Positions 1-52,742 of a stretch of DNA of 64,000 nucleotides are shown here, piece after piece; within the stretch, counting starts at the first letter, position 1, and every line of letters begins with the position of its first letter. The position numbers and the translations under genes are program-made. The DNA comes from a virus: the UHGV virus genome UHGV-0134996; one strand, given 5' to 3'. The notes beneath the pieces are model-generated. The model had not been told where the DNA came from. It did not search any database and worked only from the letters and a program-made list of their open reading frames with translations.

Positions 1-674
1 TCAGCCAGTTCGGCAGCCAGGCGCAGAGCTTCGGGCAATGTTTGGGGGATCGCTGGAGAAGCAGCGCTAACCTGCTGCAACTCCTCCAGCTTGTCGATCA
101 GCGAACGGCGGACCGCTTTTGACTCGCGCGCGGCGACTCGCAGGGCTTGTTTGAAAGTCATGGTGATAATGTCTATGTTTGCACCATTTTTGCGACCTAC
201 ACTTTTTGTGTAGGTCTCACCTTCAAGCTCATCTACAACCTTCTCAATAAACTTATTATTTCTTACTAATGGTTCCCCACATAACTTACGCGCCTCATTA
301 ACCATCTTTAACAGCGTCTGGCTGTCGATTGTGTCTCCGGTGTTGGGGATAGCATCCATGACCGGTGCTGGTGTGGTTGCTGTCAAAGGCTTTGTAACGA
401 CAACATCTGGTTTGCTTGCTTTCATTCTGTGTGCCTCCTTGCGTGTTTCGGCTGCGACGGTTGCGTAATTCAGATGCCCCTGTTCGAGCAGGTATTCGCG
501 GATATCAGACAACAGAATGCGGTGAACAGCGTTCTTGTCCTTTCTCCGGTAAAGTTGTTTGGTGATCATGAAGTAGTTGGCAATAACACCCGGTATATCC
601 CTGGTACTGATACAGGATGTGTGCTGTTCAATTGCCTCAATCATTTCTTCACGGGTGACTAATGACGTTCTCAT
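1..674 (-). CDS. ant: Antirepressor Ant-like (immI-like copy 1), N-terminal ~224 codons; gene runs past window start
   Basis: ATG at 674-672 (minus), open frame to position 1; ~70% aa identity over aligned region to complete 346-aa Ant-like ORF at 51153-52193; clear nucleotide similarity to 51520-52200. Confidence 0.7.
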   Translation of the reverse strand, partial: MRTSLVTREEMIEAIEQHTSCISTRDIPGVIANYFMITKQLYRRKDKNAVHRILLSDIREYLLEQGHLNYATVAAETRKEAHRMKASKPDVVVTKPLTATTPAPVMDAIPNTGDTIDSQTLLKMVNEARKLCGEPLVRNNKFIEKVVDELEGETYTKSVGRKNGANIDIITMTFKQALRVAARESKAVRRSLIDKLEELQQVSAASPAIPQTLPEALRLAAELA

Positions 675-892
675 CGTCCCTCCTGAGCAGAAGTGTTAAC
701 AGGGAGGCACCAGTAACTGAGAGAATTGCGCGAGTTAGTTGAAAAACGGGCAGTAAAAATGCAGGGGCCATCAGGCAATTGAGAGCGTGCCTCATCTTCT
801 GTCGGTGCAATAACGAAGTGATAGTGACGTTTTTGGCAGGAGTAAAAGCGCCAGATAAATTCAGGATGAGTTGGGGTAGGGATAGTAGCCAT
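671..892 (-). CDS. icd: Icd-like small protein (Ash family, cell-division inhibitor), copy 1
   Basis: 73-codon ORF MATIPTPTHPEFIWRFYSC...; stop overlaps ant start (ATGA coupling); paralogue of 52190-52411. Confidence 0.6.
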   Translation of the reverse strand: MATIPTPTHPEFIWRFYSCQKRHYHFVIAPTEDEARSQLPDGPCIFTARFSTNSRNSLSYWCLPVNTSAQEGR

Positions 893-894
893 AT

Positions 895-1130
895 TGGCAG
901 CCTCCTTAGACGTTGGTATGTAACCACCGCAGAAGAGACCAATCTTGCTGGCGGTGGACTGTACGGAGTTGGCCTTACTGGCGTCCAAGGTAACCAGCCT
1001 ACCCGAAGGTAGCCCCATACAGCCCACCATTGTAGAGGTGTGCGTGTACGCCGATACAAAAAAAAGACGCGAGCGGCGTCTGTATCGCCTTAGACTTAAG
1101 CGGGAGGCCAATCCCGGCACCCGTTTTAAT
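895..1130 (-). ncRNA. Candidate c4-like antisense RNA / immI leader (copy 1)
   Basis: Lies upstream of icd as c4 does in P1 immI; UUCG-loop hairpin at 998-1011 conserved in position with copy 2 but with a different stem; boundaries not determined. Confidence 0.3.
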
Positions 1131-1211
1131 GAGGTGCCTGATAAGCATAAACCGAAAATGCCTCAAGGCGCAAGAGGTCAGGTTCAATGTAACATCGGCA
1201 GTCAAAAAACA

Positions 1212-1228
1212 CAATTTATTAGAGCAAA
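1212..1228 (-). promoter_or_regulatory. C1-repressor operator-like 17-mer (15/17 to ATTGCTCTAATAAATTT on minus strand)
   Basis: Plus strand caatttattagagcaaa; sits between pacB stop and immI copy 1. Confidence 0.6.
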
Positions 1229-6465: not shown

Positions 6466-6855
6466 TTAAATAACCGGACAATCATCAAATTCCCCACTTC
6501 GGGCATCATTGATGACATGAGTGATCACACCAAAAACAGCATTACTGCCCGTGTATCCATCGTCATCTACTGGTAACGCCTCTTTCTTCCCGGTGCTTAA
6601 GTCCTCCAGGTGCTGGCGCGGATACTTCCTGTATCTCTTTATGCGATATTCACCCTCCATAGCGCACACAAGCAGAGAACCATCAACCGGAGTAAGCGAG
6701 GAATCAACCACCAGCAAAGCACCCTGCAATATTCCCTCACGGTGATGGCTATCAGCTGCCCGCATGAAGTAGGTCGCTGAAGGATGTCTAATTATCTGCT
6801 GATCAAGAGAAATTCGGCTTTCAACATAATCCGCCGCAGGAGAAGGGAAGCCCAT
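6466..6855 (-). CDS. humD: UmuD-like S24 peptidase (HumD)
   Basis: 129 aa; GFPSPAADYVE...HPSATYF motif as in UmuD; no umuC partner. Confidence 0.85.
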   Translation of the reverse strand: MGFPSPAADYVESRISLDQQIIRHPSATYFMRAADSHHREGILQGALLVVDSSLTPVDGSLLVCAMEGEYRIKRYRKYPRQHLEDLSTGKKEALPVDDDGYTGSNAVFGVITHVINDARSGEFDDCPVI

Positions 6856-7230: not shown

Positions 7231-7262
7231 AAGAAACCTCCAGGAGTTAGTGGATCAGGCAC

Positions 7263-7613
7263 ATGCACAATAACGTTCTCAATGTTAGCCGTTCAATTCA
7301 GACAATCAGAGACTGCACCAGTGTGGTGGCATCAATCCCGTTGCGGAACAGCATAGACGAACTGCAAATTCGTGTATTGAATCCGAATCAGGCTAATAAG
7401 CAATTGCGCTTTATTTTGACGCTGAAAAGTGAAACAGAGGGGATAAAGCACAGAGTAAAAGTGTTTTCTGAGGCCATTCTGCTTAATGGGAAGCTCCGGC
7501 ATCTGGTAAGGCCAGAACGTCAATATCCTGACGTCCTGGCGCGTGAAAAAGACCTTCTTTCTGAAGTTCAGGATAGGGTGATCGATTTCGTCAAATGCTA
7601 TCCCCTGCATTGA
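7263..7613 (+). CDS. Hypothetical protein (isolated plus-strand ORF; may be non-coding)
   Basis: 116 aa ORF, weak RBS, overlaps a minus-strand ORF. Confidence 0.2.
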   Translation: MHNNVLNVSRSIQTIRDCTSVVASIPLRNSIDELQIRVLNPNQANKQLRFILTLKSETEGIKHRVKVFSEAILLNGKLRHLVRPERQYPDVLAREKDLLSEVQDRVIDFVKCYPLH

Positions 7614-9770: not shown

Positions 9771-10621
9771 GCCTCCTGCGGCGGTTCTGGTAGCGGCATC
9801 CAGAACAAGGCGTTCCCTAACCACGATAAAGTGCCGTCGCTCAACTCCACGTATTCCCCTTGTACCTGTCCTGCCATATACTCGCCGTGCTTTGAATAAA
9901 TTAAAATCCAATCATCTTGAGGGGGCATTCGCTCACTACAGCTTATCCAACCATCCGGAGTTACCGGAGAGTTGCCTGCCAGTCTACGCAAAACAGCCTT
10001 AACAGCCTCAATACGGTCATCATCGTAACTTTCCGCCGTATCTATGCGGTCGAGCATGATGATTGCGTTATCAATATCAGGATTGCCGGTCCACTCATTA
10101 CCGCGATTGGATTCGGCAGCCTGGTTGCCGCGTACTGGTTGATTGTCGGCTTTACCCAGTCTGTCGTCGCTGCATGAATGCCCTTCCAGCCAGGCCAATG
10201 CTTGTCGCATGAAATACGCAATATGTTTGCCGTGGTAATCGTCTTCATCGATGTGAAAAGCGATACTACGAATGTATTCAATTGCGTTTTCAATGGCCTC
10301 TAACGCTATCGGCGCTGGCGGAGTGGTATATAGTTTTCGACATTTGTATATCCAACCGGCATGGTCAGGCGTGTCTGTAAAACGCAAATCGTCTTCGTAG
10401 CACTCACGACTACGTTCTTTCCATTCCGTCCACGGAACACCGCTATTCCAGGTGGGGCGAGTGCAGGACTGATACAGAACAGGCTCTGCTTCCAGCGATG
10501 CCAGCACGATACGCGCCAGTTCTTCCGCTTCTTCTGCTGGCAGTACAACGTTGCTATCAGGTCCGTATGTTTCGCGCCACTGCTTGATTGTCAGCAGTCG
10601 CTCTTTGGTAATAGTGATCAT
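9764..10621 (-). CDS. DUF551-like protein (lambdoid ea-type)
   Basis: 285 aa; C-terminal W...SCSERMPP...W pattern. Confidence 0.45.
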   Translation of the reverse strand: MITITKERLLTIKQWRETYGPDSNVVLPAEEAEELARIVLASLEAEPVLYQSCTRPTWNSGVPWTEWKERSRECYEDDLRFTDTPDHAGWIYKCRKLYTTPPAPIALEAIENAIEYIRSIAFHIDEDDYHGKHIAYFMRQALAWLEGHSCSDDRLGKADNQPVRGNQAAESNRGNEWTGNPDIDNAIIMLDRIDTAESYDDDRIEAVKAVLRRLAGNSPVTPDGWISCSERMPPQDDWILIYSKHGEYMAGQVQGEYVELSDGTLSWLGNALFWMPLPEPPQEAK

Positions 10622-16120: not shown

Positions 16121-16137
16121 AGATTTATTAGAGCAAT
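16121..16137 (-). promoter_or_regulatory. C1 operator-like 17-mer (16/17)
   Basis: Plus strand agatttattagagcaat; overlaps stop codon of HAD gene. Confidence 0.65.
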
Positions 16138-48203: not shown

Positions 48204-48359
48204 TTACCTTTCAGATTCGTAGGCTGTGAAGACAGTGACCTCCGTCTGGCTGGTTCGGATTCGTACCTCGCAGAGGTCTTTCCTCGTTACCAGTGCCGTC
48301 ACAATGACGGTTAAACAGATGACGATCAGAGCGATTAATATCGCTTTTTGCTGCTTCAT
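48204..48359 (-). CDS. hok: Hok/Gef-family type I toxin
   Basis: 51 aa MKQQKAILIALIVICLTVIVTALVTRKDLCEVRIRTSQTEVTVFTAYESER; close to Gef/Hok. Confidence 0.85.
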   Translation of the reverse strand: MKQQKAILIALIVICLTVIVTALVTRKDLCEVRIRTSQTEVTVFTAYESER

Positions 48360-48417
48360 AGCCTGCTTCTCCTTGACCTTTTGGTCGGTAAGAGGCTAAT
48401 CTACGTATGCTAAGCAT
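48211..48417 (-). CDS. mok: Mok-like overlapping reading frame
   Basis: 68-codon ORF overlapping hok in another frame. Confidence 0.5.
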   Translation of the reverse strand: MLSIRRLASYRPKGQGEAGYEAAKSDINRSDRHLFNRHCDGTGNEERPLRGTNPNQPDGGHCLHSLRI

Positions 48418-48540
48418 AGATATGGCCTCAGATTAATGTTAAGCGTCTTGCAGGACGCGTAATGTTATCTGGGGCTTTCTTCTATCTGCTTTTCGGGTAA
48501 TGCCTGAAGCAGATAGCCTCAAGCACCCGCAACGATTGTA

Positions 48541-48836: not shown

Positions 48837-49682
48837 TCACCCTCTGAATCCTGCCGGTATACCCCATTGTTCGTTATCTTTATTTTTGGCTAAAACCGCA
48901 TTAAGAGCTTCGTTTACCGTCATGCAATGCGGCAGATTATCGAAGTTTGATATCCCGCCAATATCAGGAGAACGCTTGTCCTTCAGGTAAGCATATTTCC
49001 GCGCTGCCGCCTCTACTTTCTGCTTGAACTCATGTTTTTGAGCGCGTTTTTTGGATAACCGCAGATTGTCAGCCTTTGCTTTTGCCTCAGCGATCCATGA
49101 AATCAATTTTTTGAGTCTGGTCGTTCCGGCACCGCCGGAAACTGATCTTTTTGTTTTTTTAACTTGTGACTTCTTATTCTTTATTGCCACGTCATCCTGA
49201 CAGGGGGAGGGGGTATCATTTTGACATGGGGGTGTGGATAAAAAATTAAATAAAGCCAATGTCTTAGCGAGAACAGCTTTAACCTTGGTTGCCGCTGAAG
49301 AGATCTTTAATTTGCTTTCAATCAGCGCATTTTTGGCTTGTTGTGCGAAGGCCAAAAAGGATGGTGTAAACCGGTACAGGTTAGCGCGACGTTCACGGTG
49401 ATCGCCGATAACAATCTCTACAGACAGAATTCCTTTGTTTACAGCTTCACGGAATGCACGAACGACGGTTGATTGGCTATAACCAGTTTCTGCCGCGATC
49501 AGGCGGTGAGGCTTGTGAATGAAGTATTCACTGGTTGTTGCCGCGAGATTTGCACATTGCGACAGGATATGCCCGGCGCTACGGGATAGACCGGAGTGTG
49601 TTACAAAGCAGGCCAATTCATAGCCAGAAAAAGTAAAATCGCTCATCGTTATACAGCTCAGGAAAGTGACTTTAGCCAGCAT
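48837..49682 (-). CDS. repL: RepL-like lytic replication protein
   Basis: 281 aa directly downstream of kilA; by position and size. Confidence 0.5.
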   Translation of the reverse strand: MLAKVTFLSCITMSDFTFSGYELACFVTHSGLSRSAGHILSQCANLAATTSEYFIHKPHRLIAAETGYSQSTVVRAFREAVNKGILSVEIVIGDHRERRANLYRFTPSFLAFAQQAKNALIESKLKISSAATKVKAVLAKTLALFNFLSTPPCQNDTPSPCQDDVAIKNKKSQVKKTKRSVSGGAGTTRLKKLISWIAEAKAKADNLRLSKKRAQKHEFKQKVEAAARKYAYLKDKRSPDIGGISNFDNLPHCMTVNEALNAVLAKNKDNEQWGIPAGFRG

Positions 49683-50581: not shown

Positions 50582-50598
50582 AAATTTATTAGAGCAAA
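50582..50598 (-). promoter_or_regulatory. C1 operator-like 17-mer (16/17)
   Basis: Plus strand aaatttattagagcaaa, ~70 bp upstream of kilA start. Confidence 0.65.
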
Positions 50599-51152: not shown

Positions 51153-52193
51153 TTAAGACAAGGACGCCACTGGTTTTAACAAGCCAGCATCAAGTAGCTT
51201 GCGAGTCAACCACTGCTGGCCTTTACCCGTTAATTGGGGCGTCAGCCGTATCTGGTAGCCATTTTCATCATCCAGCACCACTTCTTTCACCGTGAAATAC
51301 CCGGCGTTGATGTACTGTTGGCGCGGTACGTTTTTGCGCGCACCAAAAGCCATGAGAATGCCGTTCTGGCGCAACCATGAGAAAAGGGCGTTTTGCTTAA
51401 GTCCAACGACCTTTGCAAAGTTCCCGATCAGGATTCCATTAGCCACTGATACCCGGTCGGCAAAATCGACTTTAGGGGCTGCGGCCACCAGCTGTTGTTC
51501 CAGCTGCATTTTCTGTTCTGCCAACTCGGCAGCCAGGCGTAGAGCTTCTGGTAATGTTTGGGGGATCGATGGGGCAGGGGAGTTTGCCTGCTGCAATTCT
51601 TCCAGTTTGTCGATCAGCGAACGGCGGACCGCTTTTGACTCGCGCGCGGCGACTCGCAGGGCTTGTTTGAAAGTCATGGTTATGACAAGCATTGATGTTT
51701 TGTTCATTTTTTCCACTACACTTTTTGTGTAGTGCTCACCATCAAGCTCATCGAGTATTTTTTCGATGAATTTGTTGTTCCGAACCTCTGGTTCCCCACA
51801 TAACTTACGCGCTTCATTGACCATCTTTAACAGTGTCAGGCTGTCGATTGTGTCTCCGGTGTTGGAGATAACATGCACTGCTGGTGATGGCGTAGCTGAA
51901 GCAACAGGTGCTGGTTTTTCAACATTCAAATTATTACCGGTCATTCTGCGCGCCTCCTTTCTCATTTCTGCTGCCACTGTTGCGTAACGTAGACGTCCTT
52001 GTTCAATCAAATAATCCCTGATCTCGGCTATCAGTAGCCTGTTGATCACAGCCTTATCTGTTCGGGTATAAAAACGTCTGGTTATCATGAAATAGTTGGC
52101 AATTGCGCCGGGGATCTCCCGTGTCGGCATACAGGTTGTATGCAAAGCGATCGCTTCGGCTATTTCATTACGGGTGACGAGAGGTGTTTTCAT
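51153..52193 (-). CDS. ant: Antirepressor Ant (copy 2, complete)
   Basis: 346 aa; C-terminal Ant/KilAC-type domain; ATGA-coupled to icd. Confidence 0.8.
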   Translation of the reverse strand: MKTPLVTRNEIAEAIALHTTCMPTREIPGAIANYFMITRRFYTRTDKAVINRLLIAEIRDYLIEQGRLRYATVAAEMRKEARRMTGNNLNVEKPAPVASATPSPAVHVISNTGDTIDSLTLLKMVNEARKLCGEPEVRNNKFIEKILDELDGEHYTKSVVEKMNKTSMLVITMTFKQALRVAARESKAVRRSLIDKLEELQQANSPAPSIPQTLPEALRLAAELAEQKMQLEQQLVAAAPKVDFADRVSVANGILIGNFAKVVGLKQNALFSWLRQNGILMAFGARKNVPRQQYINAGYFTVKEVVLDDENGYQIRLTPQLTGKGQQWLTRKLLDAGLLKPVASLS

Positions 52194-52411
52194 AAACCCC
52201 CCTGAACGTTGGCAGAGAAGGGGAGGCTCCAGTAACTAAGTGAATTGCGCGAGTCAGTTGAAAAACGGGCAGTAAAAATGCAGGGGCCATCAGGCAATTG
52301 AGAGCGTGCTTCGTCTTCAGTTGCTGCGATAACGAAGTGATAGTGGTGTTTTTTACAGGAATAGAAACGCCAGATGAATTCTGGGCGTGCGCAAGGATTG
52401 GCATTAACCAT
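52190..52411 (-). CDS. icd: Icd-like small protein (Ash family), copy 2
   Basis: 73 aa; GAGG RBS. Confidence 0.65.
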   Translation of the reverse strand: MVNANPCARPEFIWRFYSCKKHHYHFVIAATEDEARSQLPDGPCIFTARFSTDSRNSLSYWSLPFSANVQGGL

Positions 52412-52640
52412 AGTTACGGCCTCACAATCAGGTTTAACAACCTGCTACCCGCTGCTAAACAGGTGGCAGGACGTGACGGGGTTAGCAGACTGGCGATTGT
52501 GAAACCAGCAGGCCGAAGCCTCCCCATCACGCCCCACCATAATTTGGGCGTAACGCGGTTTTACGGACACAAAAATACCGCAATATCGGATATCTGCGGC
52601 TGTCCGCACAATCATTCAGGCTGCTAAACCCGGTCGCAGA
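52412..52640 (-). ncRNA. Candidate c4-like antisense RNA / immI leader (copy 2)
   Basis: UUCG hairpin at 52510-52521; inverted GCTAACCCCG / CGGGTAGC pairs; boundaries not determined. Confidence 0.35.
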
Positions 52641-52725
52641 ATTTGCTACGACGGCGGAACTATAAGCCTGAACGATTAAAAGGTCAATATGATGCGAAAA
52701 GATAGCATTCGCGACTTAAAAATAC

Positions 52726-52742
52726 AAATCTATTAGAGCATT
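52726..52742 (-). promoter_or_regulatory. C1 operator-like 17-mer (15/17)
   Basis: Plus strand aaatctattagagcatt upstream of c4-icd-ant. Confidence 0.55.

Follow-up and report, generated by a model that had tools for sequence, protein, structure and literature searches.

The window, a stretch of 64,000 nucleotides from the virus genome UHGV-0134996, belongs to a P1-like phage or plasmid prophage. Its segment at 51.2-53.5 kb shares 99.9% identity with Escherichia phage vB_EcoM-Ro157c2YLVW and 92-97% identity with P1, P7 and their relatives. The minus strand of this segment carries the genes in the canonical immI order, c4-icd-ant1/2-kilA-repL (for the function of immI, see PMC8201110). At the left end of the window, pacA and pacB are followed by a second icd and ant on the same strand. 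The module at the left end is referred to as copy 1, the immI module as copy 2. In both of them icd and ant are located downstream of a C4 RNA on the same strand, in an operon-like location. Sites resembling the C1 operator are frequent, with 11 in the window versus 0.33 expected, and one of them lies upstream of each module.

The immI control region and a second module

Genes and control elements of copy 2:
51153..52193, minus strand: ant1/ant2 antirepressor gene, 346 aa (Pfam ANT/KilAC, PF03374, E 1.3e-30)
52190..52411, minus strand: icd, 73 aa (annotated as Icd in P1, P7 and Ro157c2YLVW)
52613..52665, minus strand: c4-a1b1 leader motif (Rfam RF03163, 55.5 bits, gathering score 46.7)
52659..52687, minus strand: promoter TTGACC-17-TATAGT, equivalent by position to P1 P1c4/P51b (scan, P1 annotation)
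52726..52742, minus strand: C1 operator, equivalent of Op51/Oc4, with two mismatches to the consensus (P1 and P7 annotation)

The immI regions of P7 and P1 agree with copy 2 in the operator, the promoter, the a1/b1 and a2/b2 sites and the order of icd, ant, kilA and repL. The interval 52412-52640 is identical to P7 in 229 of 229 positions and to P1 in 211 of 228. By sequence, copy 2 and the P7 immI control region are one and the same.

Copy 1, a further c4-icd-ant module that has diverged in sequence, is an insertion between pacB and c1; within the window it directly follows pacB.

Genes and control elements of copy 1:
1..674, minus strand: ant, the N-terminal 224 codons lying within the window, cut by its edge (protein alignment)
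671..892, minus strand: icd, 73 aa, the stop codon overlapping the ant start in AUGA (open reading frame, protein alignment)
1058..1081, minus strand: intrinsic terminator AGACGC-CGCUC-GCGUCU followed by U8, between a1/b1 and C4 (scan, fold)
1060..1137, minus strand: IsrK-type leader with a1 and b1 (Rfam isrK RF01394, fold)
1212..1228, minus strand: C1-operator-like site TTTGCTCTAATAAATTG, just past the pacB stop codon (two mismatches)

The Icd proteins of the two copies share 83% identity over 63 aligned residues, and Ant of copy 1 is 68% identical to Ant1 of copy 2 over the 224 residues in the window. The leader matched isrK (RF01394) at 1137..1060 over model positions 1-77 with 60.8 bits (gathering score 50) and c4-a1b1 (RF03163) below threshold, with 20.5 bits and an E value of 0.0056. 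A consensus scan for sigma-70 promoters found none for copy 1 at its threshold; the best candidate by eye is weak (TTGCGC-18-TATGCT, 1173..1144).

Queried with 361 nt, the copy 1 segment matched 281 plasmid records; in 103 of them the match spans 80% or more of the query, at 90-99.7% identity. It is also present in the phages 673R5, RCS47 and JL22. RCS47 and 673R5 carry the same insertion between pacB and c1, with c1 and coi kept. It has been described as "two short hypothetical orfs and an antirepressor" (Venturini et al., 2019; PMC6906374). The records of RCS47 and 673R5, both inspected in detail, contain no c4 RNA annotation at this insertion.

The UUCG hairpins as parts of C4 RNAs

The starting point was a pair of hairpins with a UUCG loop, which the original prediction placed about 105-110 nt upstream of each icd start. 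The copy 2 hairpin, AGGC-UUCG-GCCU, occurs at precisely the predicted coordinates. The copy 1 hairpin, CUACC-UUCG-GGUAG, has the predicted sequence, its position being 999-1012 and not 998-1011, one base off. The distance from the hairpin to the icd AUG is 107 nt from the 3' end, 113.5 nt from the loop centre and 120 nt from the 5' end in copy 1 (AUG at 892), and 99, 104.5 and 110 nt, respectively, in copy 2 (AUG at 52411). The proposed spacing was roughly right.

C4 RNAs and their internal hairpins:
953..1028, minus strand: copy 1 C4 antisense RNA, predicted mature form of 76 nt (Rfam RF01695, own covariance model R1, fold)
977..998, minus strand: copy 1 hairpin 2, with b' in the loop (Rfam, fold)
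999..1012, minus strand: copy 1 hairpin 1, the reported feature (sequence, Rfam, fold)
52462..52538, minus strand: copy 2 C4 antisense RNA, 77 nt (identical to c4 of AF503408; Rfam, fold)
52489..52509, minus strand: copy 2 hairpin 2, with b' in the loop (Rfam, fold)
52510..52521, minus strand: copy 2 hairpin 1, the reported feature, first internal helix of C4 and helix 3 of alignment A3 (sequence, Rfam, fold)

A short UUCG hairpin of 4-5 bp is by itself within chance and not remarkable. The two strands of the whole window contain 487 TTCG tetramers. Four UUCG hairpins with four Watson-Crick pairs were counted in the window versus about 1.9 expected; only three of the four have a C-G closing pair, and the minus-strand pair among them is that of copies 1 and 2. 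Folded in isolation, the two hairpins gave z values of -4.7 and -2.5, the latter for the 12-nt hairpin of copy 2. Their significance derives from the context, because both lie inside full-length matches to the C4 covariance model.

The Rfam C4 family (RF01695, gathering score 45) matched copy 1 at 1034..947 with 75.9 bits and copy 2 at 52544..52459 with 69.6 bits, both on the minus strand and over model positions 1-87. The E values were 4.7e-13 and 1.7e-11. No other C4 match was present in the window, in agreement with our own covariance model, which scored the copy 1 C4 at 89 bits (model R1). The matches span both hairpins, whose counterpart in the family consensus is the first internal helix, gcgcCuUcGGgcgc. 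The structured regulatory RNA that had been proposed is hereby identified as c4 of P1-like immI regions. The annotated 77-nt c4 misc_RNA of P7 (AF503408) equals window positions 52538..52462 on the minus strand in 77 of 77 bases. The c4 of P1 aligns over the same span; this alignment had been named as a check that could place the RNA elsewhere, and it puts the RNA exactly there.

Both copies fold into a three-helix architecture, in which a long closing helix surrounds hairpins 1 and 2, in the minimum free energy as well as in the centroid structure. The minimum free energies are -41.8 kcal/mol (z -3.7) for the C4 of copy 1 and -45.1 kcal/mol (z -5.7) for that of copy 2. Hallmarks of processing are present in the sequence, an AU/GG 5' junction and a CCACC 3' end. 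Aligned in register, the hairpin 1 stems of copies 1 and 2 differ on both sides in three of the four shared pairs (U-A/A-U, A-U/G-C, C-G/G-C), and the closing C-G pair is common to both.

Covariation had been proposed from the two stems, and it extends to the relatives. IMG/VR was scanned with the pattern GGGG-N3-5-CTTCGG-N3-5-GCYGG, in which loop and flanks are fixed and the stem bases are free, yielding at least 120 loci. When four C4 RNAs were simply aligned with MAFFT (A1), the hairpins were misaligned, and this alignment was replaced by a gapless seed (A2) of 13 sequences for the covariance model and by an alignment based on this model (A3). The model recognized 47 C4 RNAs among the IMG/VR loci listed and P1, P7, RCS47, 673R5, Gifsy-1 and the window. 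They form A3, which includes the C4 RNAs among the IMG/VR matches listed and has 39 distinct rows. Duplex energy of the flanks was considered as a definition of C4 context; it proved too permissive in GC-rich contigs, and the split by model was used. Among the matches listed, 39 of 39 C4 pattern matches have 4-5 contiguous stem pairs, made up of 16 different hairpin sequences, versus at least four stem pairs in just 9 of 81 non-C4 pattern matches. In the 39 distinct rows of A3, drawn from the matches listed, 99.7% of the cells are paired versus 30-52% with the partners slid by 1-3 columns, the alignment itself being fitted to the covariance model. The UUCG helix is paired in 100% of its cells and shows double-sided changes at four of five pairs in these 39 distinct C4 RNAs from the matches listed, which bears out the claim of covariation. 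The pattern fixes CTTCGG, and the fifth pair and the loop are invariant by construction; the sample is silent on whether UUCG is universal. The UUCG loop is not universal in C4, as Gifsy-1 C4 and a second copy in RCS47, both outside the pattern sample, carry GAAA in its place.

Two readings lose their ground on this evidence. Chance stem-loops without a common function would be compatible with the modest excess of 4-5 bp UUCG hairpins in the window (4 versus about 1.9) and with the z value of just -2.5 for the isolated 12-nt hairpin of copy 2. Such a coincidence has next to no probability left, because the hairpins occupy equal model positions in two full-length C4 matches (E 1e-11 to 1e-13), the helix is completely paired with compensatory changes at four of five pairs in 39 distinct homologues from the matches listed, and the pattern scan separated 39/39 C4 from 9/81 other loci among the matches listed. 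A protein-coding c4 with a hairpin incidental to its codons, as a mechanical 56-aa open reading frame spanning the copy 2 C4 (52445-52615, minus strand) and coding annotations such as the "transcriptional regulator C4" of RCS47 and the c4 CDS of X15639 might suggest, is refuted with equal firmness because the P1 and P7 c4 products are antisense RNAs according to published genetics (Citron and Schuster, 1990, as cited in PMC8201110 and PMC5320573) and the variation preserves base pairs; copy 1, moreover, has no equivalent open reading frame of the same frame or extent.

Antisense elements and their targets

The P1 record annotates binding sites for C4 on both sides of c4, namely a2 (TTGACAG) and b2 (GTTAGTGA) 3' of it and a1/b1 5' of it. 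Corresponding elements are found in both copies.

Antisense elements and target sites of copy 2:
52422..52429, minus strand: b2 GAUUGUGA, abutting the icd Shine-Dalgarno sequence GAGG (P1 comparison, duplex energy)
52452..52458, minus strand: a2 UUAGCAG in the icd-ant mRNA, positional equivalent of P1 a2
52482..52488, minus strand: a' CUGCUAA, single-stranded between hairpin 2 and the closing helix, the P7-type counterpart of P1 a'
52495-52502, minus strand: b' UCACAAUC in the hairpin 2 loop, complement of b2 and b1
52606-52613, minus strand: b1 GAUUGUGC, at the 3' edge of the c4-a1b1 match (sequence)
52621-52627, minus strand: a1 UUAGCAG, inside the Rfam c4-a1b1 match (sequence)

Antisense elements and target sites of copy 1:
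904..912, minus strand: b2 CGUCUAAGG, overlapping the icd Shine-Dalgarno sequence AAGGAGG (duplex energy)
936..942, minus strand: a2 UUGGUCU, 7 bp with a' including one G-U (duplex energy)
969..975, minus strand: a' AGGCCAA (sequence, duplex energy)
982-990, minus strand: b' CCUUGGACG in the hairpin 2 loop (sequence, duplex energy)
1088-1095, minus strand: b1 GUCUAAGG in the IsrK-type leader (duplex energy)
1105-1111, minus strand: a1 UUGGCCU in the hairpin loop of the leader (duplex energy, fold)

In both copies a' and b' are exposed and complementary to the downstream a2 and b2, of which b2 lies at the ribosome-binding site of the gene that follows, and a second set of targets, a1 and b1, is present upstream in the same transcript. 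Copy 1 shares with the C4 of P7 and P1 the three-helix architecture, the AU/GG 5' junction and the CCACC 3' end, the placement of a' and b', a b2 over the icd ribosome-binding site and the coupling of icd to ant. It differs from them in a' (AGGCCAA) and b' (CCUUGGACG), in a hairpin 1 of 5 bp instead of 4 bp with a different stem sequence, in an IsrK-type leader with an intrinsic terminator instead of the c4-a1b1 leader, and in its position between pacB and c1 and not beside sim/kilA. RCS47 has yet another a'/b' specificity at the same pacB-c1 site.

The copy 1 RNA forms duplexes of -8.3 to -8.8 kcal/mol with its own a2, -13.9 with b2, -11.0 with a1 and -12.4 with b1. For copy 2 the values are -8.8 (a2), -11.7 to -11.9 (b2), -8.5 (a1) and -8.7 kcal/mol (b1). 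Cross-module duplexes amounted to -3.7, -5.3, -7.3 and -8.9 kcal/mol in one set and to -4.7, -3.2, -4.3 and -5.6 kcal/mol in the other. Each C4 of the window pairs best with the sites at the expected positions in its own leader. On these energies the prediction is that the two switches are orthogonal, without cross-reaction. These position-restricted energies and ranks replaced a search for the longest complementary run with G-U pairs over long flanks, in which noise obscured the difference between own and cross pairings.

Among the distinct loci from the matches listed, the own b' ranked first of 36 alternatives against the own downstream region in 29 of 39, and in 32 of 39 the own a' was among the best three of 23 alternatives. 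This intermolecular covariation of a' and b' with their targets, as read from the sequences, supports an antisense mechanism.

The original prediction had also pointed to inverted segments in copy 2 as an antisense-target pair. The segments GCTAACCCCG (52477-52486) and CGGGTAGC (52444-52451) both occur and could form an imperfect duplex (-10.9 kcal/mol), but the annotated antisense/target pair is a different one. Five bases of GCUAACCCCG fall within the true a' (52482-52488), and the targets of a' are the UUAGCAG sites a2 at 52452-52458 and a1 at 52621-52627. CGGGUAGC sits just 3' of the real a2. The combination GCUAACCCCG/CGGGUAGC was rejected as a functional pair: CGGGUAGC is not a covarying target, because it is unchanged in P1, where a' differs, whereas the adjoining a2 does covary.

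RNase P cuts the 5' end of C4 in P1 and P7. The published account describes a 77-nt RNA excised by RNase P, whose b' blocks the ribosome-binding site and whose a' sets the specificity (PMC5320573, PMC8201110). A stable RNA of about 77 nt is cut from its precursor by this enzyme (Hartmann et al., 1995, as cited in PMC5320573), and the antisense nature of c4 in P1 and P7 goes back to Citron and Schuster (1990, as cited in PMC8201110 and PMC5320573). In the window, C4 would be co-transcribed with the genes it controls, in the order leader a1/b1, c4, a2/b2, icd and ant, and then be excised. The b' in the hairpin 2 loop and the single-stranded a' before the closing helix would pair with b2 and a2 upstream of icd. 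Since the icd ribosome-binding site is abutted or overlapped by b2, and the translation of ant is coupled to that of icd, C4 would keep Ant off; with Ant off, the C1 repressor would therefore maintain lysogeny. For copy 2, RNase P excision as well as repression and immunity in vivo may be expected by analogy from its identity to P7.

Each UUCG hairpin is best explained as the first internal helix of a C4 antisense RNA that silences the antirepressor, with a probability of about 0.93. The present analysis supplies the sequence, the assignment to the family, the fold, the covariation, the complementarity and the gene context; processing, translational repression and the role of a1 are taken from the P1/P7 and Gifsy-1 literature. 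The reported feature is the already-known C4 RNA, of a family contained in Rfam and characterized since 1990, and the copy 2 form is literally the P7 RNA.

The copy 1 leader, Gifsy-1 IsrK and the part of the hairpin

In the Gifsy-1 prophage, Rfam assigns isrK (34316..34240), c4-a1b1 and C4 (34214..34131, 69 bits) in tandem. Counted from the start of isrK, positions agree with those given by Hershko-Shalev et al. (2016; PMC4825925). On this scale, the AUG codons of "orf45" at 107 and 119 fall at the 5' end of C4, G28 and G31 fall in a1 (UUGGCGU, 26-32), and C162 and C159 fall in a' (ACGCCAA, 158-164). G28-C162 and G31-C159, the compensatory pairs published there (PMC4825925), are exactly base pairs between a1 and a'. 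From this match of coordinates and the position of C4 it follows that the processed STnc1160 RNA of about 80 nt is, at the level of sequence, the C4 RNA, as is "orf45"/STnc1160. The Gifsy-1 data thereby give experimental backing for a1-a' pairing and for a terminated a1/b1 leader acting in trans. A short, terminated IsrK RNA acting in trans to activate translation downstream is known for Gifsy-1 only, and the published model invokes alternative mRNA structures and an open reading frame (PMC4825925). C4, P1 and RNase P are unmentioned in that paper (Hershko-Shalev et al., 2016; PMC4825925), and the literature searched yielded no paper naming C4 together with IsrK.

The IsrK/"orf45"/anrP region of Gifsy-1 (RF01394) resembles copy 1 in its IsrK-type leader with a1 in a hairpin loop, in a terminator at the same position, in C4 and in having a2/b2 at the ribosome-binding site of the antirepressor operon that follows. 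Unlike copy 1, it has no icd, so that C4 directly precedes anrP, and its hairpin 1 loop is GAAA and its a' and b' are different. Copy 1, unlike Gifsy-1, has a P1-type C1 operator upstream.

From the sequence we infer that copy 1 is expressed and functional. A decaying, non-functional duplicate of immI, with copy 2 alone at work, would account for a promoter scan of copy 1 without a consensus match, for the intrinsic terminator between its leader and C4, for an a'/a2 pairing weaker than in the copy 2 class (7 bp including a G-U) and for an ant gene cut by the window edge. All four copy 1 targets, however, are still complementary to their own a' and b', which differ from those of copy 2, and icd is intact, with a strong Shine-Dalgarno sequence and AUGA coupling to ant. 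The layout of leader, terminator and C4 is the one shown to function in Gifsy-1, and the segment occurs in the 281 plasmid records and the phages 673R5, RCS47 and JL22. Decay of copy 1 is accordingly improbable.

A wider reading, to which we give somewhat less than even odds, sees in the window two orthogonal C4-Icd-Ant switches under one C1. Copy 1 would be a chimera, in which a P1-type operator and icd-ant have been joined to a lambdoid IsrK-type leader, and the short terminated form with a1/b1 would titrate C4 as an anti-antisense decoy, freeing Ant. If true, this would provide a defined function for a1/b1, still "putative" in the P1 annotation, and would unite the literatures on P1 immI and on Gifsy-1 IsrK.

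The hairpin finding itself changes little, as helix 2 of C4 was known and the interval is identical to P7. The new points are modest and comprise the unannotated second C4 with a distinct specificity, the predicted orthogonality and the connection of C4 to IsrK. The practical value lies in annotation, namely of a second C4 region in hundreds of P1-like plasmids. With the second C4 recognized, these elements are predicted to carry two independently addressed antirepressor switches, which bear on superinfection immunity and on the induction of phage-plasmids that spread resistance genes.

Within the C4 RNA, the UUCG hairpin would take no part in recognition and would serve as a scaffold at the three-way junction, displaying a' and b'. 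Because of this inferred scaffold role, its stem may drift by compensatory change while the shape is kept. Compensatory drift, the stable tetraloop and the identity of hairpin 1 in P1 and P7 despite their different specificity point to such a stable scaffold.

An active contribution of hairpin 1 to specificity, or to the binding of a protein or processing factor, for instance in RNase P recognition or by an RNA chaperone, is unlikely, though a shade less so than the decay of copy 1. It would fit the loop, for which only two types occur, the stable tetraloops UUCG and GAAA, and the three stem pairs that differ between copy 1 and the Stx-converting phage P13374, changing together with a' and b'. 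The heteroimmune P1 and P7, however, share an identical hairpin 1 and differ only in a' and b', hybrid a'/b' combinations are found on one and the same hairpin, and the flanks hold no complementary partner for the stem. A stem that covaries freely while its loop stays constant is typical of structural elements, as the scaffold would be.

Stx-converting lambdoid phages such as P13374 and Stx2a_F765 are about 80% identical to copy 1 from the leader to the icd start, and the closing helix of C4 is identical. They differ from it in the hairpin 1 stem (CCGAC/GUCGG), in a' and b' and in all targets. Cross-talk between the C4 RNAs of copy 1 and of the Stx phages was considered and rejected, as a', b' and the targets differ. 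The hairpin 1 stem differs between copy 1 and P13374 despite the identical closing helix; it could travel with the specificity cassette or have a role of its own. The gene downstream in the Stx phages is a regulator of the Rha/antirepressor type and not icd-ant1.

Specificity elements of the C4 RNAs

The insertion site between pacB and c1, occupied in the window by copy 1 (the diverged second C4 module), also carries C4 RNAs in related elements.

RCS47, 6532-6620, minus strand: C4 RNA at the same pacB-c1 insertion site, compared with window 947-1035

In the RCS47 RNA, hairpin 1, the first internal helix, is capped by GAAA, unlike that of window copy 1. Its recognition elements (a', AGTCTCAA; b', TTCCCTTTGACG) both differ from those of copy 1, and the pacB-c1 site therefore harbours several specificity classes. 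The C4 RNA of 673R5 at this site is identical to that of the window. A further example of one element with two C4 modules is a viral contig (L111) encoding C4 RNAs at 7246-7334 and 9876-9963, on the same strand and 2.6 kb apart, which differ from each other in a' and b'.

Mixed combinations were found among the matches listed for IMG/VR P1-like contigs. Three (L031, L107, L108) join a P1-type b' to a P7-type a', one (L100) has a P1-type a' with a P7-type b', and another (L055) combines a P7-type a' with a new b', UUUCGUAAGUG. Hairpin 1 and the closing helix are identical across all of these. In P1-like phages, a' and b' are subject to reassortment.

C4 RNAs were likewise located in Stx phages.

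1599-1687: C4 RNA of Stx2a phage P13374 of E. coli O104:H4
1599-1687: C4 RNA of a Stx phage (L127)

Their closing helix is exactly that of window copy 1, whereas the hairpin 1 stem differs by three compensatory pairs. The a' and b' elements differ as well, and the phages' own a1, b1, a2 and b2 match accordingly. From hairpin 1 to a', the RNA behaves like an exchangeable cassette.

C4 RNAs under other annotations

In Gifsy-1 (NC_010392, 34131-34329, minus strand), an Rfam C4 match of 69 bits lies at 'orf45'/STnc1160, 3' of IsrK. Two compensatory pairs between IsrK and orf45, G28-C162 and G31-C159, have been published (Hershko-Shalev et al., 2016), and both are a1:a' base pairs. By sequence, the published 'orf45'/STnc1160 is a C4 RNA. 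C4, P1 and RNase P are not mentioned in that paper (PMC4825925), and no STnc1160-C4 connection was found in the literature searched.

In some public records, c4 is still a protein-coding CDS ('transcriptional regulator C4').

FO818745/NC_042128: RCS47, c4 annotated as CDS
X15639: P1, c4 annotated as CDS

Contrary to the annotation in these records, the c4 product is an antisense RNA.

Further features of the window

52438-52451, minus strand: CGGGUAGCAGGUUG, adjoining copy 2 a2 (immI) on its 3' side
48354-48528, minus strand: sok antitoxin RNA, full-length Rfam match (114.9 bits, gathering score 59)
29426-29498, 31129-31201, 31207-31279, minus strand: tRNA genes, matching the Rfam tRNA model at 64.7-74.5 bits
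31948-31964, 16121-16137, 35629-35645, 50582-50598: examples of C1-operator-like sites

The segment CGGGUAGCAGGUUG is unchanged in both P1 and P7 and could on paper pair with the copy 2 a' region (-10.9 kcal/mol). Part of it is taken in by a CAGGUU-GUUA-AACCUG hairpin between a2 and b2. The sok match, just past repL (48837-49682) on the side facing away from immI, points to a putative hok/sok-type addiction module. The three tRNA genes fit a P1-like genome, as expected. Sites resembling the C1 operator (ATTGCTCTAATAAATTT with at most 3 mismatches) number 11 in the window versus 0.33 expected, and include an overlapping divergent pair at 31937-31964.
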